A stretch of 64,000 nucleotides of DNA from Hyphomicrobiales bacterium (GTDB lineage Bacteria > Pseudomonadota > Alphaproteobacteria > JAPOUT01), in contig JAPOUT010000054.1 of the NCBI GenBank assembly GCA_026708545.1, forward strand, positions 5,195-69,194. The letters are read 5' to 3'. Below, piece after piece: positions 1 to 51,603 of this stretch. Each line of letters starts with the position of its first letter. Position 1 is the first letter of the stretch. Position numbers and translations under genes: made by a program. The notes under the pieces were generated by a model. That model was not told where the DNA came from. It worked only from the letters and a program-made list of their open reading frames with translations, and did no database searches.

Positions 1-285
1 CGGAATAATTATTGCCAGCCTTATCATGAACGGAGTAAGGAGGTAGCCCCATGGCGGGTTTCTAAAACTCAAGCCTCATCACCCGTTCGTCGCTGTATTA
101 CCAAAGACACAATTAACTCTCAACCGACGGCACATAATCTCTATCGTCGGCGCCCGGATTGAAAATACCTCTCGTGCCGGCGTTTCTACAAGCACCGCGC
201 AGCGGTGTATTTTTCGGATTCATTCCAATCAATGCGATGCAAGTATTATTGACATCTTGCGGAAACTACGGCAGGATAATTGCTT

Positions 286-392
286 GGTTCACCAAACCTC
301 CCCGTGAAGTGACCCTTGTCGGGTCGCCCACTGAATAAAATACTGTCCCCACAGAAATAGGTGGGATCCTTCACGGTTTGTTTTGGTGAACC
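286..392. other. Candidate structured RNA element (three-way junction) inside an ORF-free 835-nt region
   Basis: The outer helix pairs GGTTCACC(AAACC) at 286..298 with (GGTTT..)GGTGAACC at 375..392. It is extended by CCGTGAAG 302..309 pairing with CTTCACGG 369..376. Two internal hairpins are present: GACCC-ttgtc-GGGTC at 311..325, and CCCAC-agaaatag-GTGGG at 348..365. No convincing ORF overlaps it. I do not recognise the family. Confidence 0.25.
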
Positions 393-835
393 GACCCGGC
401 GCTCGCTTGGGTAATCGCAACAAACGGAGGTGAAGACTTTCAGAGAAAAACAATCTCTTTGTTTCGGGATGAATTCCTTACCGATATTTCATCCGTTTTC
501 GCTGCGTTTCGTAGAGTTTTGGGCGGCGGAGGGTGTTGGAAGTTTACCAAAAACTCTACGATACGACTTTCGACATTCCTCCGCCGTTCTCAATGTCACA
601 CCGGCGGCAGGATCAGAATCCGGAAAACAACCGTCGGCTGAATCTTATGCAGCAACGCTAACGACAAGAAGCCAACGCACCGTCGGCAATCCTTTTCTCT
701 GAAATTCGCGCATTGTCCCGTTGTGAGCAAGGCGACTTGAGAAACTATGTCAGCAGATAACGGACAGGCGGGTTCGAGAAAACGCGCCTAATGAGCCATG
801 TCGCCGGCAGCGGGCGAATATTCCGAGAAGAAGAC

Positions 836-1444
836 TCATGCCGGCGTTCGTGTGAGTCGATTTGTAATTGAGTAAATAGAGATGACAATAAACAGAATCG
901 GAGGCACATAGTTGTACCATTTGCTTTCCTCGAGCAATCGGGCAACGAAGCCGGACAGAATGGCAACCGCGCCGTTCACCAAAACCCCGCCGATATTGAA
1001 AATAATGCCGTAAAGTATGAAGGTTTCCGTCGGGCTTCCTGCCGGGACGAACTGCGGTAAAAGGCTTAAGAAAAACAGGACGATTTTCGGGTTCGTCAAG
1101 TTGATGAAAAGCCCGCGCACAAACACTCCGTAACCGGAGATTTGCGGAATTGAAAGGTTTGCACCCTTGCGCGGCCAGCTTTGATAAGCGAGATAAAGCA
1201 AATATATCGCGCCGCAAATCTGAATGCCGTTATAAATTCCGGGGTATAGTTCAAAAATAGCGCTTATCCCGAATACCGTCAAAATGACGTAGATGAACAC
1301 ACCCACTTCGATTCCGAGTGCGGCGAGCAATCCCATGCGCACACCGTTGCGCTGAGATTGTTGAAGGACGAACATCATCGCCGGTCCGGGAGTCACGTTG
1401 ATGACAAAAACCGCTATCAGAAAATAGACGAACAGGGAGTCCAT
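836..1444 (-). CDS. LysE/RhtB family amino-acid exporter
   Basis: 202 aa with about six hydrophobic helices. The N-terminus FLIAVFVINVTPGPAMMFV and the later NLTNPKIVLFFLSLLPQFV are typical LysE-family motifs. G+C is lower than in the core genes. Confidence 0.8.
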   Translation of the reverse strand: MDSLFVYFLIAVFVINVTPGPAMMFVLQQSQRNGVRMGLLAALGIEVGVFIYVILTVFGISAIFELYPGIYNGIQICGAIYLLYLAYQSWPRKGANLSIPQISGYGVFVRGLFINLTNPKIVLFFLSLLPQFVPAGSPTETFILYGIIFNIGGVLVNGAVAILSGFVARLLEESKWYNYVPPILFIVISIYSITNRLTRTPA

Positions 1445-1543
1445 GTGGTACGTTTCCTATAGACGTGGAAAGGAGGCTATCGGTTCAACGGGGCGCATGG
1501 GCGAAGTATAGATGGCGTAAAAAAAGAAGTCGAGCCTTTTTCT

Positions 1544-1571
1544 TTGACCTGCAAAATTTGGGGGATAATAT
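1544..1571 (+). promoter_or_regulatory. Candidate sigma70-type promoter (TTGACC-16 nt-TAATAT) facing a hairpin repeat and terminator, with no ORF downstream
   Basis: TTGACC lies at 1544..1549, followed by a 16-nt spacer and TAATAT at 1566..1571. The only thing downstream on the + strand is the 1584..1647 hairpin and the 1672..1707 terminator. Confidence 0.3.
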
Positions 1572-1647
1572 ACTTTATGTCACAAGCCCTGATTCGTCTG
1601 ATTCGTCCATAGTCACTGAAAATTCAACTGAAATTGTGAATCGGCTT
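1564..1647 (+). repeat. Hairpin-forming repeat element, copy L
   Basis: The sequence GATAATATACTTTATGTCACAAGCCCTGATTCGTCTGATTCGTCCAT occupies 1564..1610. The 5' arm AAGCC..GATTC (1584..1597) can pair with GAATCGGCTT (1638..1647). Related copies lie at 2696..2780 (inverted), 48825..48870 and 49181..49208. Confidence 0.6.
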
Positions 1648-1671
1648 GCCTTTAGCCCTGTCCGAGAGAAA

Positions 1672-1707
1672 CCCCCTAGCCAAGAAAGAAGGCTAGGGGG
1701 TCTTTCT
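1672..1707. terminator. Bidirectional intrinsic-terminator-like hairpin
   Basis: CCCCCTAGCC (1672..1681) and GGCTAGGGGG (1691..1700) flank a 9-nt loop. The + strand continues with TCTTTCT and the - strand with TTTCTCTC. It lies 52 nt downstream of the stop of the 1759..2565 (-) CDS. Confidence 0.55.
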
Positions 1708-1758
1708 AGGAGATTATAGACTCAAATATGCAGTCTATAATCCTGATTTACTTAAGCT

Positions 1759-2565
1759 CTATGGTACCCTCGTTGCTCCAAATGCGCCTCTCATTATACC
1801 ATTTTTTCTAAATTCGCCTACAATACCATCATTGTCGTTTCCCATAATTTCGCCACGGATTTCCCCGTCACCTCTTCTGGTTTCATGAATACTATACGGC
1901 TCAACTAAAGGCACATCTTCAAATCCAAAATCTGTTCCCTCTACAGAAAACATAAAATCCAATAAAAACTCATTACCAGGCTTTTTCAAATCAATTGTAA
2001 CATCACCTTCTGCTATTCTACCTTCTTCTCTAAGATTACCTATTACATCACCTGTATATGTTCCTTCTATTAACTCTGCCCGACCCTTTGATAAATCAAA
2101 ATGATTTTCCTCATAACTCCAATCGCCATCTTTGAATAAATCGTATCCAAATCGTGTGGTAACCCCGTCCTTCGTTGTTATCGATTTATCCCAACCTCCA
2201 AATGTTTCATGGGTAGGTAAATTAGGAGAAGGAGGAGGATTGGTAGGAAGATAATCTTCACGGGTTTTACCCTGAGGAAGATTACCATTTTTCCAATGGT
2301 CTCCATCTATATCGGGATCACCACCAGTACCAGGAATGACAGGTTCTTTATCAGGTGTAGGTGCAGGTGGATTATCATTCACAGGTTTGCTTTCCGTATC
2401 TTTCGTTTCACCCTGTGGAAGTTCATCAATTTTGGCAATCTTCGGTTCTGGCTGTGAAGTCGTAGATGTAGACCCTCCGCCACCTAACGCAAACGCTTCT
2501 GGTGCAATAACAGCCAATCCCAATACCATTGGAAGCATTATCGAAATCGTCTTTAAGGTTTTCAT
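1759..2565 (-). CDS. Secreted protein with a Pro/Thr/Asp-rich linker and a C-terminal TbpB/fHbp/hemophilin-like beta-barrel domain
   Basis: 268 aa. The signal peptide MKTLKTISIMLPMVLGLAVIAPEAFA|LG has no lipobox Cys. A low-complexity region spans about residues 27-125. The C-terminal pattern GTYTGDVIG...DVTIDLKK...GEIMGNDNDGIVGEFRKNGIMRGAFGATR resembles the AxYxG...vdF...GxFxG...GaFGAkr barrel signature of the TbpB_B_D family. A strong RBS AGGAGA sits 6 nt before the ATG. The gene is AT-rich. Confidence 0.75.
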   Translation of the reverse strand: MKTLKTISIMLPMVLGLAVIAPEAFALGGGGSTSTTSQPEPKIAKIDELPQGETKDTESKPVNDNPPAPTPDKEPVIPGTGGDPDIDGDHWKNGNLPQGKTREDYLPTNPPPSPNLPTHETFGGWDKSITTKDGVTTRFGYDLFKDGDWSYEENHFDLSKGRAELIEGTYTGDVIGNLREEGRIAEGDVTIDLKKPGNEFLLDFMFSVEGTDFGFEDVPLVEPYSIHETRRGDGEIRGEIMGNDNDGIVGEFRKNGIMRGAFGATRVP

Positions 2566-2608
2566 GTTCGTTCTCCTGCATTAAGTCTATGCATCCCACC
2601 ATATTTAT

Positions 2609-2638
2609 ATTATAGAGATACCCCCCCCCCCCCGTCAA
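2609..2638 (-). promoter_or_regulatory. Near-consensus sigma70 promoter whose spacer is a poly-G tract
   Basis: Read on the minus strand, TTGACG (2638..2633) is followed by an 18-nt spacer of G12 plus TATCTC, then TATAAT (2614..2609). This sits about 44 nt upstream of the ATG at 2565, and an RBS AGGAGA lies at 2577..2572. Confidence 0.6.
2621..2633. repeat. Homopolymeric tract C13 (G13 on the coding strand of the downstream gene)
   Basis: There are 13 uninterrupted C residues at 2621..2633. It is the longest homopolymer I noticed in the window; the others are 7 nt or shorter. Confidence 0.95.
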
Positions 2639-2695
2639 GCAAATAAGGCAAAAATTTCAAAATTTTTTCATTAATTATTGTCCATAAACAAAAAC

Positions 2696-2780
2696 AACCC
2701 CCGAAACCTCGCGATAGACGCTGAAATTCCCGCCATTATGGACGAATCTGGCGAATCGGGGCTTAACTCATATTAGTCGC
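2696..2780 (-). repeat. Hairpin-forming repeat element, copy R (inverted relative to copy L)
   Basis: The reverse complement of 2738..2780 reads GCGACTAATATGAGTTAAGCCCCGATTCGCCAGATTCGTCCAT. It matches copy L at 24 of the last 27 positions. The arms CCCCGA (2698..2704 region) and TCGGGG (2756..2761 region) can pair, and on the minus strand the hairpin is followed by GTTTTTGTTT. It may double as the terminator of the 2773..3021 ORF. Confidence 0.6.
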
Positions 2781-3021
2781 AATCCTCGTCATCCAGCCTT
2801 TCAAAGAAGACCTCCACCATCTCCGGCTGTCCATGCTCGCTTTCGACAATCATAAACCGCCTATTCAAGTCATCCTCGGTCGGTTCGGGCAGCTCGTCAT
2901 CAGTAGGGGATGCAGTCGTCTTCCCACCAGTCCCTCTGCTGCTCTTCCCTCGCTTTCCTGAGGTCACGATTGAATGCAGGATCCCTTCTAACTGCTCCCG
3001 TTGTGTTTTCTTCCGTGTCAC
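2773..3021 (-). CDS. Hypothetical small protein (basic N-terminus, strongly acidic C-terminus)
   Basis: 82-aa ORF with no recognisable family. Its composition is protein-like (MTRKKTQREQLEGILHSIV...EMVEVFFERLDDEDCD). It lies between the MFS gene and the repeat element. Confidence 0.4.
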   Translation of the reverse strand: MTRKKTQREQLEGILHSIVTSGKRGKSSRGTGGKTTASPTDDELPEPTEDDLNRRFMIVESEHGQPEMVEVFFERLDDEDCD

Positions 3022-3083
3022 GCTTGATAAGCTCCTTGTAGGTTATCGTCTTGCCAACCATAGCAGAGAACAACGATACGGCC

Positions 3084-4277
3084 TCAGGCGTAATTTGCGC
3101 CCCCCTTCCCCGCTTTCACATAAATCCACAAAACCGCGGACAGAAACGCCATAAAAATTGCCGTAACCTCAAAAGCAGTACCGAGACCGTGCTGCTCCGC
3201 GATGTTTCCGGCGACAGCAACGCCAAAAGCCATGCCTAAAGACAGGCTGATAAAAGTCATTCCCCACCCGAGTGACAACCTATCATTGTAAATGTGATTG
3301 GCGAAAACCAAACATGCCGAATTTGGAACAATGGAAAAAACACCAAAAACAACCCCTGAAATTAAGATGGAATTCACATTCCACAATTCAAAGATAAAAA
3401 ACGAAATAGATAAAAACAAATATGACACGGCAATCGTGGCAATCACGCCCAACTTGCTTATCAAAAACGCGGTTACCAAAAAGGCGAGCAGGCCCGAAAC
3501 ACCCACCAACGACCAAAAAAGATACGTAAAACTTTTCACACCTAATTCCAAATCAATAAACGATACACTAAAAGTGTAATATACATTGAGGGCTATCCCG
3601 TAAAAAAACGACATGGCAAACAACATTGCCCAGCCTTTCGGAAAAAGTTCCCGTATGCCCTCGGCCAATATGTTTGGCGAAACTTTCGGAGCATGGATTT
3701 TCCCCCAAGGAAGCAGAAAGACGTTCAAGAGCAGCATCGCCAGGGAAATCAGGCTGAAAGAAAACCAGGCGGACTGCCACTCTTCAAGGAATTGATACGC
3801 ACATACCGCACTCAACACCAATCCCGGCGCTCCGCCCGTGCTAACGATGATTGTCACTAAATCGCGTTTGTTTTCCCTTACAGCCTTTCCGATGTATTCA
3901 AAGTAGGCAGGGGGCATAATTCCTGCACCAAGCGATGCCAAAACAATACCCGCTGAAAAGGATAAATAGTCGGGAGAAACCGTGACCAGGGATATCCCGA
4001 TTGTAACAACGCCGCCCCCTGACACGATCAGAAAAATCGGCCTGATTTTATTGGCGTAGAAAACACTCACAAGCGAGACTATGGCATATGCCGTTGTAGC
4101 GGCGCTGGAGAGATAACCTGTGTAAGACAGGGAGAGGTCGTATCTTTCAATAAAAACCGGCAGAAAGAAGCCGTAGGCATACCGCCCGATTCCATACGTC
4201 ACCGCGATGCCAAACACGCTTGGCAACAAAAACAGCCATGGAGAAATTCTTGTTTCTTTTATGCATGCATGGGTCAT
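3084..4277 (-). CDS. MFS transporter, YbfB/YjiJ-like
   Basis: 397 aa with about 12 predicted TM helices. The N-terminal motif GIGRYAYGFFLPVF resembles the YbfB family signature GIGRFAYTPLLP. The gene is AT-rich. Confidence 0.75.
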   Translation of the reverse strand: MTHACIKETRISPWLFLLPSVFGIAVTYGIGRYAYGFFLPVFIERYDLSLSYTGYLSSAATTAYAIVSLVSVFYANKIRPIFLIVSGGGVVTIGISLVTVSPDYLSFSAGIVLASLGAGIMPPAYFEYIGKAVRENKRDLVTIIVSTGGAPGLVLSAVCAYQFLEEWQSAWFSFSLISLAMLLLNVFLLPWGKIHAPKVSPNILAEGIRELFPKGWAMLFAMSFFYGIALNVYYTFSVSFIDLELGVKSFTYLFWSLVGVSGLLAFLVTAFLISKLGVIATIAVSYLFLSISFFIFELWNVNSILISGVVFGVFSIVPNSACLVFANHIYNDRLSLGWGMTFISLSLGMAFGVAVAGNIAEQHGLGTAFEVTAIFMAFLSAVLWIYVKAGKGGANYA

Positions 4278-4356
4278 CTAGAAACTATACGTTCAACAAT
4301 GCCGACTCAATGACTCCTTTTTCCGATGAAAAGGCGTCCATCCTGCCCCATGCGCA

Positions 4357-4974
4357 TCAACTCATCCCGAACAACTCGAAGGTCGTGCTGCCTTTCAAAA
4401 TCTGCGCGCGCATTTCTTCTTCTTTGCTATCAACCTCAACCGCCGCCTGATAGAGACGCTCGGCGATATCGACCGGAATGACGATAACCCCGTCTTCGTC
4501 ACCGACAATGATATCGCCGGGACGAACCGACGTCCCCCCAACCTTAACCTCGATATCAATTTCGCCGGTCTCGCTTCGGGACGCACGGGTCGGATTCGTA
4601 CCGGTTGCAAAAACCGGAAACTTCATCTTCTTCAACTCAACGGTATCGCGAACGGAACCGTCAATCACGACACCTATGGCACCGCGTGTCTGGCAGCAAG
4701 TCGCAAGCAAGTCACCGAAATGCCCAAAGTCGCGACTTCCCTCGGCATCAACCACAAGAACCTCGCCGGGCTGAATCTTGTGCGCCGCCCGGTGGATGCC
4801 TCCGTTTTGTCCGTAACCTACCTTCGCGGTCGCGGCATACCCCGCAACCTTCGCTTCCGGATAGAGCTGCCTGATTGCCGCATCCATCGCGCGCGCTTTT
4901 GGGTCGGCGTTGCAGAGCGTCCCTGTCGGAAATGCCTTGAGGCGCTCGATGACATCTTTGTTTGCATCATTCAT
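4357..4974 (-). CDS. RraA family protein (4-hydroxy-4-methyl-2-oxoglutarate aldolase / oxaloacetate decarboxylase-like)
   Basis: 205 aa. The motifs GDLLATCCQTRGAIGVVIDGSVRD and GDIIVGDEDGVIVIP are typical of the RraA/DlpA fold. Confidence 0.8.
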   Translation of the reverse strand: MNDANKDVIERLKAFPTGTLCNADPKARAMDAAIRQLYPEAKVAGYAATAKVGYGQNGGIHRAAHKIQPGEVLVVDAEGSRDFGHFGDLLATCCQTRGAIGVVIDGSVRDTVELKKMKFPVFATGTNPTRASRSETGEIDIEVKVGGTSVRPGDIIVGDEDGVIVIPVDIAERLYQAAVEVDSKEEEMRAQILKGSTTFELFGMS

Positions 4975-5001
4975 AATTCTACCTTTCTCTAATTTACGAA
5001 T

Positions 5002-5838
5002 CTACGGGTCGGGTTGATCAGACAAAAAGTTTCGTCCTTGTTGAGTCTTCGGCCGATGGAAAAACAACGCTGCATCGGATTGCTCGACCATCTTACCACG
5101 ATGCAAAAATAATATCTCGTCGGCAAGACGCCTTGCCTGTGCGATGTCATGCGTGCTCATAACTATCTTAACGCCCTCGTCATGCATGGAGAGTATCATT
5201 TCCTCGAGCTGCTTGGTAGCGGCGGGGTCAAGATTGGCGGCAGGCTCGTCCAAAAGAAGAAGTTCGGGACGCAACACCCATGCGCGCGCCATCGCGAGCC
5301 TCTGCTGTTCGCCGCCCGACAACAGCGTTGCCGGGCGTTCCGCGTATTCGACAAGGTTGGCCACCTCAAGGGCGACATCGGCGCGCTCGTTGGCATCATG
5401 CTTGGAAAGCCCGTGAAGGGCGAGCGGATAAAGAATATTGGCGCGCACCGATCTCCTCATCATCACGGGTCTTTGAAACACCATCGCCTGAAATCGCAGT
5501 TGCGCGTCTTTGAGCGCGCTTCCCCCGGGAAGCGGAGGGCGCTCCTGTCCGGCGTTGGGGCCGCACCAACGAAGAGAGCCTTGCGAGGGTCGCAACAATC
5601 CGTGAACGATTCGAAGCAACAAGGATTTGCCGGCGCCGTTCGCGCCAAGCACAACCGTGCGCTTGCCGTGCTCAAGGCGAAAGCTAAGCCTCTCAAGAAG
5701 CACCCGCCCGTTGGTTTGATAACAGATATCCGTGCACTCGAGGGGAAGGATGGACGCGCTTCGGCGCACCACGCCCGTGGGAGCGATGCAATCTGACCGC
5801 TTCCTTTGCGTTGAAAGTTTTTGTAGGGTTGCTCTCAT
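5002..5838 (-). CDS. tupC: ABC transporter ATP-binding protein (tungstate/oxyanion TupC-like)
   Basis: Walker A is GANGAGKS, the signature is LSGGEQQRLAMA and Walker B is LLLLDEP. The start is uncertain: the ATG at 5838 gives a ~28-aa N-terminal extension, and GTG codons at 5772 or 5769 are alternatives. Confidence 0.8.
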   Translation of the reverse strand: MRATLQKLSTQRKRSDCIAPTGVVRRSASILPLECTDICYQTNGRVLLERLSFRLEHGKRTVVLGANGAGKSLLLRIVHGLLRPSQGSLRWCGPNAGQERPPLPGGSALKDAQLRFQAMVFQRPVMMRRSVRANILYPLALHGLSKHDANERADVALEVANLVEYAERPATLLSGGEQQRLAMARAWVLRPELLLLDEPAANLDPAATKQLEEMILSMHDEGVKIVMSTHDIAQARRLADEILFLHRGKMVEQSDAALFFHRPKTQQGRNFLSDQPDP

Positions 5839-6550
5839 GGACCTGCTTATTGATGCCTCCGCCTCGGCGATTCGCCTGATTGTCTCGGGTGACGGCGACC
5901 TGATCGAGATTCTACTGCTATCCTTCTATGTGAATTTGACCGCGGTTGCAATTGCAATGGCTCTCGCGATGCCCTTCGGCGCGTTGCTCGTGTTCGTGCG
6001 CTTCCCCGGACGGCGGCTCGTAATCGTCCTGCTGAACGCGGCAATGGGATTTCCTCCCGTAGTCGCGGGGCTGATTGTTTACATCGCCCTGTCACGCTCG
6101 GGTCCTTTGGGTGTGCTCGGATGGCTCTATACACCTGCAGCAATGATCCTCGTCCAAGTATTCCTTATCTTCCCCATTATAGCAGCACTAACACGCAGAG
6201 ACATCACCGAACTTTGGGAAAATTATCAAGAACAATTGTTATCTTTTGGCGTTGGGCCCGTCCGCGCCGTGCAAACAATGCTCTGGGAGGCGCGTTTTTC
6301 GCTGGCAACCAGCGTACTCGCGGGCCTGGGGCGTGCAAGTGCCGAAGTCGGCGGCGTCATGATCGTCGGCGGAAACATCAACCACCACACCCGCATCATG
6401 ACAACCGCCATCGCCTTGGAGACGAGCAAAGGCCAGCTCGCCCTGGCGCTGGCGCTGGGGATGATTCTGCTGGTAGTCTCGCTCGGCGTCAACGCGCTGG
6501 TCGTTCTGGTGGAAGAACGTCGGCGGCGGATTTGGGTGTCAAACTCATGA
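5837..6550 (+). CDS. tupB: ABC transporter permease (TupB-like)
   Basis: The start MDLLIDASASAIRLIVSGDGDL is followed by NAAMGFPPVVAGLIVYIALSRSGPLG, a typical permease core. The stop overlaps the next gene's ATG (ATGA at 6547..6550). Confidence 0.8.
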   Translation: MDLLIDASASAIRLIVSGDGDLIEILLLSFYVNLTAVAIAMALAMPFGALLVFVRFPGRRLVIVLLNAAMGFPPVVAGLIVYIALSRSGPLGVLGWLYTPAAMILVQVFLIFPIIAALTRRDITELWENYQEQLLSFGVGPVRAVQTMLWEARFSLATSVLAGLGRASAEVGGVMIVGGNINHHTRIMTTAIALETSKGQLALALALGMILLVVSLGVNALVVLVEERRRRIWVSNS

Positions 6551-37203: not shown

Positions 37204-37564
37204 GTTCGCGACCGTTTTGGTGTTTGAGCTTTTTCAAGACGCGCTGGATGTCTCTGCGCACGAGTTGGTAGGGACGCGTGAGACCGTCGCGCTTGGCAAC
37301 GAAAACATAGTCGTGCCCGTCTTGTCCGTATTGCGGCAGAAGTTCTTTTGCGAGAGCGCGAAGGCGTCGGCGGATTCGGTTGCGCTTGACGGCATTGCCG
37401 TTTTTTTTGGAGACGGTAAGACCGAAGCGGATGCCTTCGCCTCCGTCAACTTGGTGCACTTGCAGAATCGCGGCGGGCATGAAAATTTTCCGCCCCTTTT
37501 TTGTCAGCGTGATGAATTGGCTTCGCTTCTTGAGGCTGCAAAGTTTTTCTGCGGCGTTCGTCAT
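37193..37564 (-). CDS. rnpA: Ribonuclease P protein component
   Basis: 123 aa. The sequence GLTVSKKNGNAVKRNRIRRRLR is the RNR motif. The gene lies between rpmH and yidC. Confidence 0.9.
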   Translation of the reverse strand: MTNAAEKLCSLKKRSQFITLTKKGRKIFMPAAILQVHQVDGGEGIRFGLTVSKKNGNAVKRNRIRRRLRALAKELLPQYGQDGHDYVFVAKRDGLTRPYQLVRRDIQRVLKKLKHQNGREHGR

Positions 37565-47483: not shown

Positions 47484-48139
47484 GAAATCTTCTTTCTGTC
47501 GCGAAAAAACCCGCCTGTCGGCCCGTTATCCTTTAATTGCGCAAGCCACAGCGCCGTATCCGCTCCCTCCTCAACCGAACGCGTTGCATCATTTCCGCCC
47601 ATTCGCGTGCGAACCCAGCCCGGACACATCGCGTTCACCTTCACCGCCGGCGCCAATTCGCGCGAGAGCGAAACCGTCAGCGCATTTAGCCCGGCCTTTG
47701 CAACACCATAACCGTTCGGTCCGCCCAAACCCTCTCCGAACGACCCCCATCCCGACGATACATTGACTATCCGGCCCCATCCCTTCTTGCGCATTGACGG
47801 AGCCGCCAGACATATCAAGCGGAACGGCCCGGTCAACATCACGTCAATGTTCGTTATAAAATCGTCCGGATGCTCAAGAATCGTCTCGCGAAAACACACA
47901 CCCGCATTGTTAACGAGAATATCAACATCGCCGACATCCTCCATGCAACGCGAAATTGATCCCGCATCGGAAACATCCAGTTCGACGCACTGCGCGCCAA
48001 CCTCGCGCGCCGCCTTCTCCCCCGCCTTCAAATCGCGTGAACCGACCACGACGTCATGGCCAGCTTCCACCAGCCCGTGCGCGATCGCCAAGCCTATCCC
48101 GCGATTGCCTCCGGTCACCAGAGCCCGTTTTGATTTCAT
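47477..48139 (-). CDS. SDR family oxidoreductase
   Basis: Internal start MKSKRALVTGGNRGIGLAIA, then NNAG and YGVAKAGL motifs. A strong RBS GGAGGT lies upstream of the ATG at 48139. Confidence 0.88.
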   Translation of the reverse strand: MKSKRALVTGGNRGIGLAIAHGLVEAGHDVVVGSRDLKAGEKAAREVGAQCVELDVSDAGSISRCMEDVGDVDILVNNAGVCFRETILEHPDDFITNIDVMLTGPFRLICLAAPSMRKKGWGRIVNVSSGWGSFGEGLGGPNGYGVAKAGLNALTVSLSRELAPAVKVNAMCPGWVRTRMGGNDATRSVEEGADTALWLAQLKDNGPTGGFFRDRKKISW

Positions 48140-48492
48140 GTCGCACCTCCGTTCGAAAAACAACCCCGGGAGAACCGGAGCAAAGGCACATAACGACGAT
48201 ATGCCTCATATCTTTTGTATTCCATAAAAATTATCCTCATGGCTACCCGAACAACTGCTTCTCGCTTGGATTCGAAATTCCGAAACTCCCGACAAAACAT
48301 GCAAGAACCATGGCAAAAAGTATACCGTAAATGATTTGCTTATGGTATCAGCCAAGACCCGATAAAGAACTACCCCAATCCACACAAAGTGGCCGATGCC
48401 CTCCTGGAACAAGCATAGTGCAATTACCAGCAAAAGTTCGGGACAGCGGGTAATAGAAAACCGGTCAGTAATAACAGAGAAATTTCGCGCGC

Positions 48493-48771
48493 CTATGTAA
48501 AAAATTGCAGAATCGTAATAAAAACGGCTAGAACTGCAACACCAAGACTAACCACACCTATCATCCTCATGGTAATGGAATTGATGTTTTTTTCCACATC
48601 CGTGCGAAGTTCTCCGATAGCCTTCTCATTACTCAATCGTAGCCTATCGATAGCGGATTCATTCTCAACAAGGAATGCTTTGTTTTTGGCTTCCATAGTT
48701 TCCATCTTTGCCTCCACAATCTCTTTGAGAGATTCAAATTCACGTTTCAGGTTGTCGTCATTGTTAGACAT
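48493..48771 (-). CDS. Small coiled-coil protein with C-terminal transmembrane anchor (XhlA/holin-like architecture)
   Basis: 92 aa. The N-terminal ~65 aa are Lys/Glu-rich heptad-like sequence, and a single hydrophobic helix IGVVSLGVAVLAVFITILQFF closes the protein. The gene is AT-rich and has no clear RBS. Confidence 0.45.
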   Translation of the reverse strand: MSNNDDNLKREFESLKEIVEAKMETMEAKNKAFLVENESAIDRLRLSNEKAIGELRTDVEKNINSITMRMIGVVSLGVAVLAVFITILQFFT

Positions 48772-48824
48772 ACCGGCATTGTATCACGGGAAGACGAGAA
48801 GGGCGAGTGAAAATATTACGGAGT

Positions 48825-48870
48825 GATATACTTATTGTCACAAGCCCCGATCCGCATTGGGATGCCATAG
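48825..48870 (+). repeat. Third copy of the hairpin-repeat family (5' module)
   Basis: GATATACTTATTGTCACAAGCCCCGATCCG...CCATAG can be set against copy L, ATATACTTTATGTCACAAGCCCTGATTCG...CCATAG. Across the ACTT..AAGCCC core, 16 of 18 positions match. Confidence 0.55.
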
Positions 48871-48879
48871 GTTTCCCAA

Positions 48880-49750
48880 AATGGTCCATTAGTTGTACCT
48901 GATTCGCCCGGCAATGCTGCCGATACCGATAATGAGGAGGTCGCCATCCAGCTCACCGACCCGAACAACAACCTCCACCGGGATGGATTATAGTGGAACC
49001 GTCCACTATTACAGTCACTATCACAGACGAAGGCTGATCATCGTGAATCCATCTCGAGATATTCCAACAATTTCCTGATACAACACGAACGAGCAGAAAG
49101 GCTATTCCAAATCATCAAACTACACACTCAAGTGCCTCCTGCTATCTATGCACCGAATTTAGACAAAACATTTGATTATGCTATACTTGATTCGTCTGCA
49201 ATCCATCGAAGGATTAGGGAAATGGTTATGGCCCTTCCCGCCCCATTTATGGTTGCTCTGTATCGTAGAGTGGTAATGGGACAGGGGATTATACCAAGAC
49301 CGGCACAGCGTCCTATTGCTCTCGCTACGTACATCGCCCCATCGCCTCTGTCTCCATAATTCGGCAACATCTCCAAGCGCATAAACGCACACAATCTATC
49401 CTGATAGCCTATCCGATTGACAATCTCAAAACGCCGCATACAACGAAACGGCAACGTTTCAGCAAGGCTTTGCCAAAAATTTAACGACTTCGTTTGCTTG
49501 GAACTTGTATTTGAACCCGATGTTTGCAGCGTAACCCTTAATTTCGGAGCATCGTTGTGTGAAGATATCAACTTCCGCAGCATAAGCATCGTTCCCGCCT
49601 TTTCCCCACGCCTACAGATCGTCACCAGACGGTAAACAGTCCTATGTTTGCAAATTCTTCTGCAGTATCCTTGTGATTTTCTTTTTTTATGCCGTTCCTC
49701 CGAACGATTTATGACATCCAGCCGTTTTCCTGTCATAATGGGAACTTAGC
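48880..49750 (-). pseudogene. Decayed coding remnants (several frames, interrupted by stops)
   Basis: Minus-strand translation gives protein-like stretches in different frames. Examples are (ATA)KKENHKDTAEEFANIGLFTVW*, AWGKGGNDAYAAEVDIFTQRCSEIKGYAANIGFKYKFQANEVVKFLAKPC*, VIVTVIVDGSTII and VEVVVRVGELDGDLLIIGIGSIAGRIRYN*. No intact gene remains and the families are not recognised. Confidence 0.35.
49181..49208 (+). repeat. Fourth, internally deleted copy of the repeat family
   Basis: The sequence is CTATACTTGATTCGTCTGCAATCCATCG. It contains TATACTT, the exact 10-mer GATTCGTCTG and ..TCCAT, all shared with copy L. Confidence 0.45.
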
Positions 49751-49816
49751 CGGATGCGCCAACATCGAGACGAACATTTTGACGCATTAGACGAACTCTG
49801 TAAAAGGATAGGAAAT

Positions 49817-50245
49817 ATGACGAACAACGAACAATCTGCGAAAGAGGTGCGCGAGGTTTTAGACAATTGGGGGAAAGCTCTATTCCAGAAAGATCTGGAA
49901 GCCATGCATAAAAGCTATGTTGAGAATTGTCGGCTCTTTGATGTGAAGGCATCTTTGAAAGGCGTTGAGAATGCAAAGGAAACATGGAAAAAGCTCTTGC
50001 CTTATTTTGATAAACCGCAGATCGAATATAGAGATCTGGAGATTCACGCCACCGACGACATGGCTGTGGTGCATTTCCGCAATCGCATAACCGGCACTGT
50101 TGAACCCATGCCTGAAGAAATGGCAAATGTGTGGTTGCGCGGCACAGTATGCTATAAGAAAATTGACGGTGTATGGAAATGCATCCATGAGCATATTTCC
50201 TTCCCTGTTGACGGTCAGACAATGCAGGTTGCTAAAGCCGCATAA
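49817..50245 (+). CDS. SnoaL-like / NTF2-fold (DUF4440-like) protein
   Basis: 142 aa from MTNNEQSAKEVREVLDNWGKALFQKDLEAMHKSY, ending ...WLRGTVCYKKIDGVWKCIHEHISFP. This is the typical ketosteroid-isomerase-like pattern. Confidence 0.7.
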   Translation: MTNNEQSAKEVREVLDNWGKALFQKDLEAMHKSYVENCRLFDVKASLKGVENAKETWKKLLPYFDKPQIEYRDLEIHATDDMAVVHFRNRITGTVEPMPEEMANVWLRGTVCYKKIDGVWKCIHEHISFPVDGQTMQVAKAA

Positions 50246-50261
50246 GATAAGGAGATTGCAA

Positions 50262-50615
50262 ATGACTTACGTGGATGGATTTGTGGCAGCCGTGCCAACT
50301 GAAAACAAAGAAAAATTTATTAAGCATGCAAAAATAGCTGCGGATGTGGTGAAAGAATGCGGCGCATTGAAAACCGTAGAATGTTGGGGTGATGATGTTC
50401 CTGACGGGGAACTTACATCGCTTCCTATGGCCGTAAAGAAGCAAGCCGGTGAAACAGTGGTTTTTTCTTGGATTATCTGGCCGGACAAGGAAACACGCGA
50501 TAAGGGTATGAAACAAATAATGGAAGACCCGCGCATGCAGGAGGATGTTAATCCGATGCCATTTGACAGCAAACGCTGTATTTTTGGCGGTTTTGAAATA
50601 ATCTTAGAGTCGTAA
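50262..50615 (+). CDS. DUF1428 family protein
   Basis: 117 aa. MTYVDGFVAAVPTENKEKFIKHAK...ECWGDDVPDGELTS...VVFSWIIWPDKETRD...MPFDSKRCIFGGFE matches the DUF1428 pattern. Confidence 0.8.
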   Translation: MTYVDGFVAAVPTENKEKFIKHAKIAADVVKECGALKTVECWGDDVPDGELTSLPMAVKKQAGETVVFSWIIWPDKETRDKGMKQIMEDPRMQEDVNPMPFDSKRCIFGGFEIILES

Positions 50616-50749
50616 AATATTCCGCTGGTTTCGCAGTCCTCACAAGTTCACTTCAAACCTGCACCCACAAATCTATTGACAATCCGGCATTCTTGTATGA
50701 TGCTGATGATAGGAGGGAGGGTTACTACATCCCAACAAGGAGATTGAGA

Positions 50750-50953
50750 ATGCGTGACTTTGTGCTGAATGTTTTGACGGGCTTCTGTTTAATAGCAGTC
50801 ATAGGAGGATTTGCGGTAGGTACAGTGTTTGGCGGTGAGATATTAATTGATTGGATGCCAATTGTTGGTGATATTTTGCTGTGGACGGTTTTAGCATGCG
50901 GATCTATTGGAGTCTTATGGTTGATGGGTGGTATTTTCAGGGGAAGGCTTTAA
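50750..50953 (+). CDS. Small two-TM membrane protein (hypothetical)
   Basis: 67 aa. An RBS AGGAGA lies 5 nt upstream of the ATG at 50750. Two hydrophobic helices are present. Confidence 0.45.
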   Translation: MRDFVLNVLTGFCLIAVIGGFAVGTVFGGEILIDWMPIVGDILLWTVLACGSIGVLWLMGGIFRGRL

Positions 50954-51059
50954 GGACTTCAGGCGGGCCTGATACTTGGATTGAACCGAGACGATAGACT
51001 CGTAGACGTCCCCCGCTTCGTTTTGCGCAACCGGCATCTTAATAATCTGCTTTTAAGTC

Positions 51060-51245
51060 TGTAGCCCGCCGGGGAACTGTCTTCTATTCCGTCTCATCGA
51101 GTATATCGGAATGAGATAGAACAAGGGGGCGCGCGGTTGGCACGGGCGGTTCGTTCCCCCATGCGCTGCGGTACAAACATGGTTGTAATGTTCGCGCCAC
51201 TCCTTGATGAAAGTCTGCACTTCCTTCCAGGAGGCCTCGTCAGGC
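51060..51245 (-). mobile_element. Remnant of an IS (DDE/rve-type, IS3-like) transposase 3' end with possible terminal TG..CA end
   Basis: Minus-strand translation gives DEASWKEVQTFIKEWREHYNHV. A frameshift then leads to (R)LYRSAWGNEPP, resembling the ...W...YNxxRPHSALG..P tail of integrase-core transposases. The fragment begins abruptly after a stop at ~51245. The sequence TGTAGCCCGCCGGGG at 51060 could be the IS terminus. Confidence 0.4.
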
Positions 51246-51475
51246 TAGGGGCTTACACCATTGCTGGTCGCTCTCTTGCGCTACCGAAGTGGAACCTCAT
51301 TACCTGAAAGTGCTGGAAGCAGCCAGAAACCGCCTAAAACAGCCCGAGAAAGCGAAGTTAAGTCACACTGATGTTTGAAATGCTCGGAGTGCAAGAAGAG
51401 CCAAATACAGCCGATTCCAGCCCGTCTAGCACCCAGGAGGGTTTTTAGGCATCTGTCCGTTGCTGGAAGGGGAAA

Positions 51476-51552
51476 TGGCGCGCCCGGGAGGACTCGAACC
51501 CCCAACCTCTTGATCCGTAGTCAAGCGCTCTATCCAATTGAGCCACGGGCGC
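51476..51552 (-). tRNA. tRNA-Arg (anticodon ACG)
   Basis: The reverse complement GCGCCCGTGGCTCAATTGGATAGAGCGCTTGACTACGGATCAAGAGGTTGGGGGTTCGAGTCCTCCCGGGCGCGCCA folds as a 77-nt cloverleaf. It has a 7-bp acceptor stem, the anticodon loop CTACGGA, the T-loop TTCGAGT and an encoded CCA. Confidence 0.95.
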
Positions 51553-51603
51553 ACTCCATTACTTTTAGAATAAAATCAACAAATATGGAAGCATAACACG
51601 CCG

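Follow-up and report, generated by a model that had tools for sequence, protein, structure and literature searches.

A candidate poly-G promoter-spacer switch upstream of the gene for a secreted TbpB-barrel protein in an alphaproteobacterium

Homopolymeric contingency loci are textbook features of host-adapted pathogens, including Neisseria, Haemophilus, Campylobacter, Helicobacter, Bordetella, and Mycoplasma. In Mycoplasma hyorhinis, the vlp loci are paralogous surface-lipoprotein genes with a conserved module of promoter, 5′ UTR, and signal peptide, a poly-A tract in the promoter spacer, and diversified mature regions. In Neisseria meningitidis, the poly-G or poly-C tracts of the surface-protein genes porA, fetA, and opc sit between the −10 and −35 elements (PMC2791445), where slippage alters both spacing and expression; in opc, extension of the tract from 11 to 12 C raises expression (PMC3447861). 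For Bordetella fim3, a single C gained or lost abolishes expression (PMC10172299). Among secreted proteins of the kind discussed below, hemophilin is an unlipidated cargo of the type 11 secretion system (PMC12282271). Our literature search found no report of homopolymer contingency loci in Alphaproteobacteria or sponge symbionts.

The locus described here lies in a 64-kb stretch of DNA, referred to as the window, and its layout follows the same plan: a run of G is located between the −35 and −10 boxes of a candidate promoter that is the best match in the window and is kept in a paralogue. Three points set it apart from porA, fetA, and opc. The organism belongs to the Alphaproteobacteria and probably lives with sponges, whereas the Neisseria genes are those of a human-adapted betaproteobacterium; the tracts comprise 13–16 nt instead of 9–14 nt, all on the long side of the optimum; and the product is a non-lipidated TbpB-barrel protein. 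The poly(C) tracts of Bordetella pertussis fim2 and fim3 are of similar length (about 13–15), are located in the promoter of a surface-structure gene, and occur at several loci per genome, as the present tracts probably do, whereas fim transcription needs BvgA bound over the −35 region and the present locus carries a canonical TTGAC −35 box with no known activator. The mechanism is a known one; what is new, as far as found, is the lineage, the Slam-cargo type of the product, and the duplication of the cassette in modular form. We regard it as probable, with room for doubt, that the G tract is a functional promoter-spacer switch of the gene for the secreted TbpB-barrel protein.

The elements of the candidate promoter are all on the minus strand, and re-reading of the sequence reproduced every coordinate that the initial annotation had given, together with its 18-nt spacer between TTGACG and TATAAT; a ribosome-binding site (RBS) and the ATG follow. 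Positions 2638..2609 read TTGAC, 13 G, TATCTC, and TATAAT. The −35 hexamer TTGACG (2633..2638) agrees with TTGACA at five of six positions and, with the preceding GC, gives GCTTGAC, which is identical in the paralogous cassette; the σ70 −35 consensus of S. meliloti is CTTGAC. The proposed hypermutable element is the G13 tract (2621..2633; C13 on the plus strand), which has no interruption, shares its first G with the last base of the −35 hexamer, and is longer than the about 8 nt from which homopolymers are considered prone to slippage. The fixed part of the spacer, TATCTC (2615..2620), is unchanged in the orthologue and reads TATGTC in the paralogue. The −10 hexamer TATAAT (2609..2614) matches the consensus at all six positions; the paralogue has TATGAT here and the orthologue TATGCT, so that the A at position 2 and the T at position 6 are kept. 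Upstream, the −35 box is adjoined by an AT-rich block, aatgaaaaaattttgaaatttttgccttatttgc (2639..2680), which is largely kept in the paralogous cassette (L037/L044), resembles an UP element, and may act as one. Downstream, the Shine-Dalgarno sequence AGGAGA (2572..2577) is located 37 nt from the promoter site and 6 nt before the ATG (2565–2563), and is invariant in the paralogue and the orthologue.

A scan of both strands of the 64 kb for TTGACA-N16-19-TATAAT returned a single site with 11 of 12 matches, namely 2638..2609, and only 7 sites with 10 of 12. Other promoters, located entirely to one side of the tract or with TATCTC as their −10 box, offered either no T at position 6 or no convincing partner hexamer; furthermore, a 70-aa open reading frame (ORF; 2426–2638) starting at the TTG of the −35 box was dismissed as spurious. 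The tract had been described initially as the only homopolymer longer than 7 nt; it is indeed the only one above 8 nt in the 64 kb, although a T8 run at 37401–37408 corrects the lower figure. Base composition predicts about 0.008 G/C runs of at least 13 nt in the window. The occurrence of the single long homopolymer inside the spacer of the best promoter-like site is far beyond chance. The surrounding DNA is AT-rich, as had been proposed: the coding sequence (CDS) has a GC content of 40.9% and the intergenic region 41.5%, as against 56.9% for the window.

Under the proposed mechanism, the G tract would be a hypermutable simple-sequence repeat forming most of the spacer of a σ70-type promoter that serves a single-gene unit. 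Slipped-strand mispairing during replication would add or remove G residues, and each step would shift the −35/−10 distance by 1 bp and rotate the boxes relative to each other. With the spacer equal to the tract length plus 5, G12 would give 17 nt, G13 18 nt, G14 19 nt, and G15 20 nt, and the binding of RNA polymerase and transcription would be expected to fall steeply once the tract exceeds about 12–13 residues. The population would then divide, heritably and reversibly, into cells that express the surface or secreted protein strongly, weakly, or not at all. The strain of the window, with its 18-nt spacer, is predicted to be sub-maximally ON, and strains with G14–G16 weak or OFF; in a sponge-associated bacterium, selection exerted by the host, by phages, or by grazers may maintain the switch. 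From this arrangement we infer that the promoter is used, that expression follows the length of the tract, and that clonal populations switch.

Tract length was compared among 13 sequences of the locus (the window, L001–L010, L029, and L032), which apart from the window itself come from ten assemblies with ENA ERZ numbers and from one Logan assembly; the lengths are those of assembly consensus sequences, and some assemblies may reuse the same reads. Invariance among close relatives had been named in the initial annotation as evidence that would speak against a switch, and the tract is not invariant: it is G13 in three sequences (window, L003, and L004), G14 in four (L007, L008, L009, and L010), and G15 in six (L001, L002, L005, L006, L029, and L032). 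The 30 nt before and the 60 nt after the tract are identical across all long contigs, and the locus sequences show no more than one SNP in 1505 nt of upstream and 1050 nt of downstream flank; a few dozen differences separate the strains across 10 kb. Roughly scaled, two or more length changes at a single site stand against one substitution in about 2,550 sites, which places the mutability of the tract, again roughly, thousands of times above background. The sole other indel near the locus is an A7/A8 difference at 1519–1525.

Runs of G13–16 are prone to error on every sequencing platform, and 13–16 nt homopolymers are miscalled on Illumina, HiFi, and nanopore instruments alike, which raises the alternative that the polymorphism is an artefact of sequencing or assembly and that the tract is a stable, fixed G-rich spacer. 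The contigs of the orthologue described below end in poly-G, where two-colour-chemistry artefacts can add bases, and some of the assemblies may derive from shared reads. In the 13 sequences, however, the tract is internal with unique flanks. Sequences with a shared SNP pattern also share their length (the window, L003, and L004 all have G13; L001 and L002 both have G15), so that the length calls are reproducible, and different patterns differ by up to 2 nt. L008 and L009 have L001-like flanks yet carry G14, which indicates that length is not simply tied to lineage. A second locus varies too, whereas the A7 run 1.1 kb away differs in just two contigs. An artefact is thus a very improbable account of the length differences.

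The second locus is a paralogous cassette, probably on the same chromosome as the window locus. It was located through P0059, a homologue (76% identical) of the small ORF upstream of the tract, about 1.39 Mb along a 3.77-Mb contig (ena:ERZ21788730:contig_4). Downstream of P0059 follow the same AT-rich block, GCTTGAC, G16, TATGTC, TATGAT, an RBS, an ATG, and a 240-aa lipoprotein; the tract is G16 in the 3.77-Mb contig and G15 in two other assemblies. The lipoprotein has the lipobox LLLAC and a signal peptide, MRTLKTITAILPMTLLLAC, that resembles the one of the window protein, and its mature part is only 24% identical to the window protein. In one of these two (L043), an IS1595 transposase gene occupies the space upstream of the cassette and the small ORF is reduced to a recognisable 3′ end, with promoter module and gene intact. 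The proposed conserved module consists of the small ORF, the AT-rich block, GCTTGAC-polyG-TATNTC-TATNNT, the RBS, and the signal peptide. Promoter, leader, and signal peptide are alike in the cassettes and the G run is kept in each copy; the module is thus conserved, whereas the mature proteins have diverged. This is the arrangement of the M. hyorhinis vlp genes, from which the present cassettes differ in that vlp has poly-A, belongs to a mollicute, and encodes a different protein fold, and in that only two cassettes are documented here.

The only orthologue found, P0002, is 59% identical to the window protein by BLASTP and 63% by alignment. It is encoded on two short contigs that each start within poly-G, with 20 and 28 G, lengths that are unreliable at contig ends and are read here as at least 20 G. 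The poly-G leads into TATCTC and TATGCT, after which come a diverged leader, AGGAGA, and the ATG; the tract is located at the position homologous to the window tract, and both assemblies break inside it. Were a −35 box to abut this tract, the spacer would be at least 25 nt.

These two relatives bear on the alternative that the tract is a mutational hot spot without selected function, hitch-hiking in a duplicated AT-rich mobile cassette and with little effect on fitness. The cassette is duplicated and compositionally foreign (41% versus 57% GC), an IS1595 transposase gene is located beside it in one strain, the tract lengths do not cluster at the predicted optimum, and other homopolymers vary as well, namely the A7/A8 run at 1519–1525 and an A19/A9 difference between L044 and L043. 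A functionless unstable tract should, however, shrink or gain interruptions, whereas at least 13 G persist unbroken at the same promoter position in a 24%-identical paralogue and a 59–63%-identical orthologue, and the window tract is located exactly inside the window's best promoter. The maintenance of an uninterrupted unstable tract across paralogue and orthologue divergence argues for selection on the tract itself, and we judge a neutral hot spot to be improbable.

Spacer lengths bear on how such a switch would operate. Over both loci, 16 sequences give spacers of 18 nt (three sequences), 19 nt (four), 20 nt (eight), and 21 nt (one), and the optimal 17-nt spacer is absent from all 16. The initial statement that loss of one G would produce the optimal 17 nt is correct for the G13 allele; the other natural alleles have longer spacers. 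Either a low or OFF condition is the usual natural state, or the optimum or the mechanism departs from the plain σ70 rule. A longer optimum would point to an activator-dependent promoter like that of fim or to an effect of poly-G geometry. In one alternative, an activator would bind at the TTGAC/AT-rich region or farther upstream, as BvgA does at the Bordetella fim promoters, and tract length would set its spacing or helical phasing relative to the −10 box; in another form of it, a poly(dG)·poly(dC) geometry would shift the optimum to longer spacers. Alleles of 13–16 G (spacers of 18–21 nt) and an orthologue with at least 20 G fit a 17-nt optimum poorly, the tract lengths resemble the 13–15 C of the Bordetella fim promoters, and both paralogues share the AT-rich block that precedes the −35 box. 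Nevertheless, GCTTGAC is a textbook −35 box that is kept in both paralogues and directly abuts the tract, and neither an activator site nor a candidate regulator gene was identified near the locus. The G-tract spacer of porA, furthermore, still obeys the 17-bp optimum. An activator- or geometry-based switch is therefore considered unlikely, although it is the foremost of the alternatives.

The unit is flanked by two hairpins and a small ORF, all on the minus strand. The small ORF (2773..3021) encodes 82 aa with no known domain, travels with the promoter module, and is co-oriented with the cassette in both paralogous loci. Its other homologues P0058 and P0060–P0063 are without a downstream poly-G module, so that the small ORF alone does not predict a tract. 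A strong hairpin 3′ of the stop codon of the CDS (1669..1703; 13-bp stem, region MFE of −47 kcal/mol, z = −5.7) is the probable transcription terminator of the unit. A second hairpin with a T-rich run follows the small ORF (2686..2761) and is a possible terminator, with a z value of −0.97 that is not significant; its sequence is conserved in the paralogue, and a suspected compensatory change between the paralogues was not borne out in a four-sequence alignment. Since this upstream terminator has no statistical support, read-through from the small ORF is possible.

Read-through is the premise of a post-transcriptional alternative, in which transcripts from upstream would carry the G run and at least 15 G would modulate expression through an RNA G-quadruplex or polymerase pausing. 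The weak upstream terminator and the shared orientation of small ORF and cassette at both paralogous loci are compatible with it. By contrast, a complete near-consensus promoter surrounds the tract; in L043, where an IS1595 transposase gene leaves just the 3′ end of the small ORF recognisable, the promoter module and gene have remained intact; and an Rfam scan of positions 1–6000 gave no match, and thus no known riboswitch or leader. Control at the RNA level is accordingly given very little probability, and a promoter-spacer switch remains the preferred reading.

The gene that this promoter would serve is the CDS at 1759..2565 (minus strand), which encodes 268 aa comprising a signal peptide, a Pro-rich linker, and a C-terminal β-barrel. 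By inspection, the signal peptide spans approximately residues 1–26 (nt 2488–2565) and consists of MKTLK, a hydrophobic core, and AFA|L. The cleavage region is AFA|LGGGG, as against LVAC|GGGG in lipoprotein relatives; with no lipobox Cys, the product is not a lipoprotein and is probably soluble, either secreted or periplasmic. The Pro-rich region (residues ~26–127) is predicted by AF2 to be disordered. The C-terminal barrel (residues ~160–268; nt 1762–2088) is modelled at a pLDDT of 80–93 from a 35-sequence alignment, with eight strands over residues 168–266; an earlier AF2 model on a two-sequence alignment had a pLDDT of 35 and was left out of the fold search. A signal peptide and a TbpB-type barrel place the product in the class of surface or secreted proteins that such switches usually control.

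Sequence relatives of the window protein are few. An indexed protein search returned only the protein itself and P0002, an exhaustive HMMER search with a two-sequence profile added nothing further, and the GTDB species genomes contained no relative. Searches against Pfam and NCBIfam models, including TbpB_B_D (PF01298), lipoprotein C, and slam_lipo, gave no match even at E ≤ 10, and a PDB sequence search likewise gave none. A scan of JGI metagenomes with G10-TATCTCTAT yielded 11 unrelated chance-level matches, none of which encodes a relative.

The link to known proteins is made through the barrel. The last ~100 residues align with a lipoprotein encoded beside LysE in the nearest genome found, L013 (pairwise E of 1e-6), and the family of this lipoprotein comprises more than 50 metagenomic clusters, many with PF01298 TbpB_B_D matches. 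In hhalign, the window protein matches a 33-member PF01298-rich family at 97.6% probability (E of 4e-12), and the profile of that family matches the C-terminal strands of the TbpB and LbpB structures. The best PDB matches in Foldseek are the Slam-dependent lipoprotein PmSLP, NHBA-C (TM of 0.62 over the target), hemophilin (HphA), TbpB, LbpB, and fHbp. On these models, the window protein is of the TbpB/Slam-cargo type by its barrel fold only. The earlier designation as a secreted TbpB-like protein thus holds for the C-terminal barrel at the level of fold and profile and finds no counterpart in a direct Pfam match. The protein resembles the cargo of Slam and type 11 secretion in that its top Foldseek matches are these proteins and in that it is unlipidated like hemophilin, and differs in giving no direct sequence match in Pfam, NCBIfam, or the PDB and in that no DUF560 gene was found among the window ORFs scanned, i.e., the immediate neighbours and 10 large ORFs. 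Transferrin-binding protein B proper is a lipidated, bilobed handle-plus-barrel protein that binds transferrin and is encoded beside tbpA. The window protein, by contrast, comprises one barrel only and is without a lipobox, its gene adjoins none for a TonB-dependent receptor, and nothing points to transferrin or haem binding.

The alphaproteobacterium-like nature of the host, proposed initially from the sequence, is supported by comparison with the nearest genome found, the Parvibaculaceae metagenome-assembled genome (MAG) OY734805.1 (L013), with which the RNase E of the window shares 84% identity. Collinearity of the two, at 86% nucleotide identity, extends from 15349 to 4353 and resumes over the LysE gene; the segment between the RraA-like and LysE genes differs. 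The exact window protein is present in metagenome assemblies labelled ROBB21, SHAF22, and ERZ2727xxxx, and these sample labels suggest that the host bacterium is probably sponge-associated. Parvibaculales/Parvibaculaceae (GTDB family RS24) are the dominant prokaryotes of the sponge Cliona cf. orientalis, according to a statement in PMC12639293 that cites Robbins et al. (2021).

In the sister genome, the 22 kb fetched through RNase E contain two further long G/C tracts. The first, a C11, precedes the ATG of a TbpB_B_D lipoprotein by ~40 nt; a different assembly has C15 at this position, and there the gene caller carries the ORF on across the tract. The second is a G20 that follows an upstream ATG and precedes the signal peptide of a secreted 964-aa repeat protein, for which no Pfam match was found. 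With G20, the frame from the ATG runs into a TAG, and G19 would restore it. The attachment of long G/C tracts to exported proteins looks like a habit of this clade, as judged from these sequences. A wider proposal, namely that these probably sponge-associated Parvibaculaceae carry a set of simple-sequence contingency loci made up of module-driven TbpB-barrel cassettes and of frameshift G/C tracts in other secreted proteins, is put forward tentatively, as a possibility to which we give distinctly less credence than to the switch itself.

If this wider proposal is true, no homopolymer phase-variation system would have been described earlier from an alphaproteobacterium living in symbiosis with a marine invertebrate. 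The locus provides a natural series of spacer lengths (18–21 nt) on a near-consensus promoter, and with spacers of 18–21 nt or more, the promoter logic may depart from the classical 17-bp rule. It also links Slam-cargo-type barrel proteins to phase variation beyond Neisseriaceae and Pasteurellaceae. Promoter-spacer tracts, two or more of them and probably on a single chromosome, and two G/C tracts in the sister genome are attached to genes for surface or secreted proteins and vary in nature; symbionts of marine invertebrates may therefore share the bet-hedging of mucosal pathogens, for which host recognition, phages, and grazers are possible targets.

The window (1445-4353) and the sister Parvibaculaceae MAG OY734805.1 (L013:15230-19891) differ in what lies between the conserved RraA-like and LysE genes: an MFS transporter, a small ORF and the poly-G cassette in the former versus an EamA-type transporter together with two Porin_4 genes in the latter. 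This variable region of low GC is a hot spot of insertion. The 82-aa ORF located 5′ of the poly-G promoter (window 2773-3021, minus strand) contains no known domain and belongs to a small family, with homologues of 65-83% identity (L033-L038, L041); on these related metagenome contigs, its relatives are accompanied by TbpB_B_D lipoprotein, N6/N4 DNA methyltransferase, and IS1595 transposase genes. A second low-GC block of the window (48000-51600, ~45% GC), a possible genomic island, adjoins tRNA-Arg(ACG) (51476-51552); of the seven promoter-like sites that score 10/12 in the window, three fall within this block.

In the sister species, the TbpB_B_D-type lipoprotein gene adjoining LysE has a poly-C tract, read on the strand of the gene, ~40 nt before its start codon ATG. 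The tract is C11 in the MAG (L013:21637-21647) versus C15 in metagenome contig L026 (3017-3031); the encoded proteins are 98% identical, and in the C15 form the tract is read through in frame from an upstream ATG. An inverse-autotransporter (IAT_beta) gene (L026:1129-2859) lies immediately 5′ of this lipoprotein gene. Sample SAMEA7724011 is the source of both L026 and the window-type locus L008, and hence the window-type and sister bacteria co-occur. Furthermore, the sister MAG carries a gene (L013:506-3400) for a secreted repeat protein of 964 aa, which has no match in Pfam, and a G20 tract (L013:3450-3469, minus strand) lies between its signal-peptide region and an ATG further upstream (3497). 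The frame from this ATG runs into TAG with G20 and would be in frame with G19. The gene resembles a classical frameshift-type phase-variable gene, or else the tract contains a one-base assembly error.

Other homopolymers also differ in length. A poly-A run ~280 nt 3′ of the paralogous lipoprotein gene is A19 in a long-contig genome (L044:2501-2519) versus A9 in a short-read assembly (L043:2501-2509), reflecting either a further hypervariable homopolymer or a platform artefact. Within ~3 kb of the G tract, the sole further indel is at window 1519-1525 (plus strand), which is A7 in the window but A8 in two other contigs of the locus (L005 and L006). A sequence in an unrelated JGI metagenome contig (Ga0172364_10014023; L017:2066-2105), cTTGACA-acgcgt-G11-TATCTC-TATAAG, superficially shares the layout of the window poly-G promoter; its spacer is 23 nt, and the likeness is probably due to chance.

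Both contigs carrying the orthologue of the poly-G cassette protein start within a poly-G run (L011:1-20 and L012:1-28); short-read assemblies are broken by the poly-G tract. With assemblies breaking at poly-G, such loci would escape routine MAG surveys.
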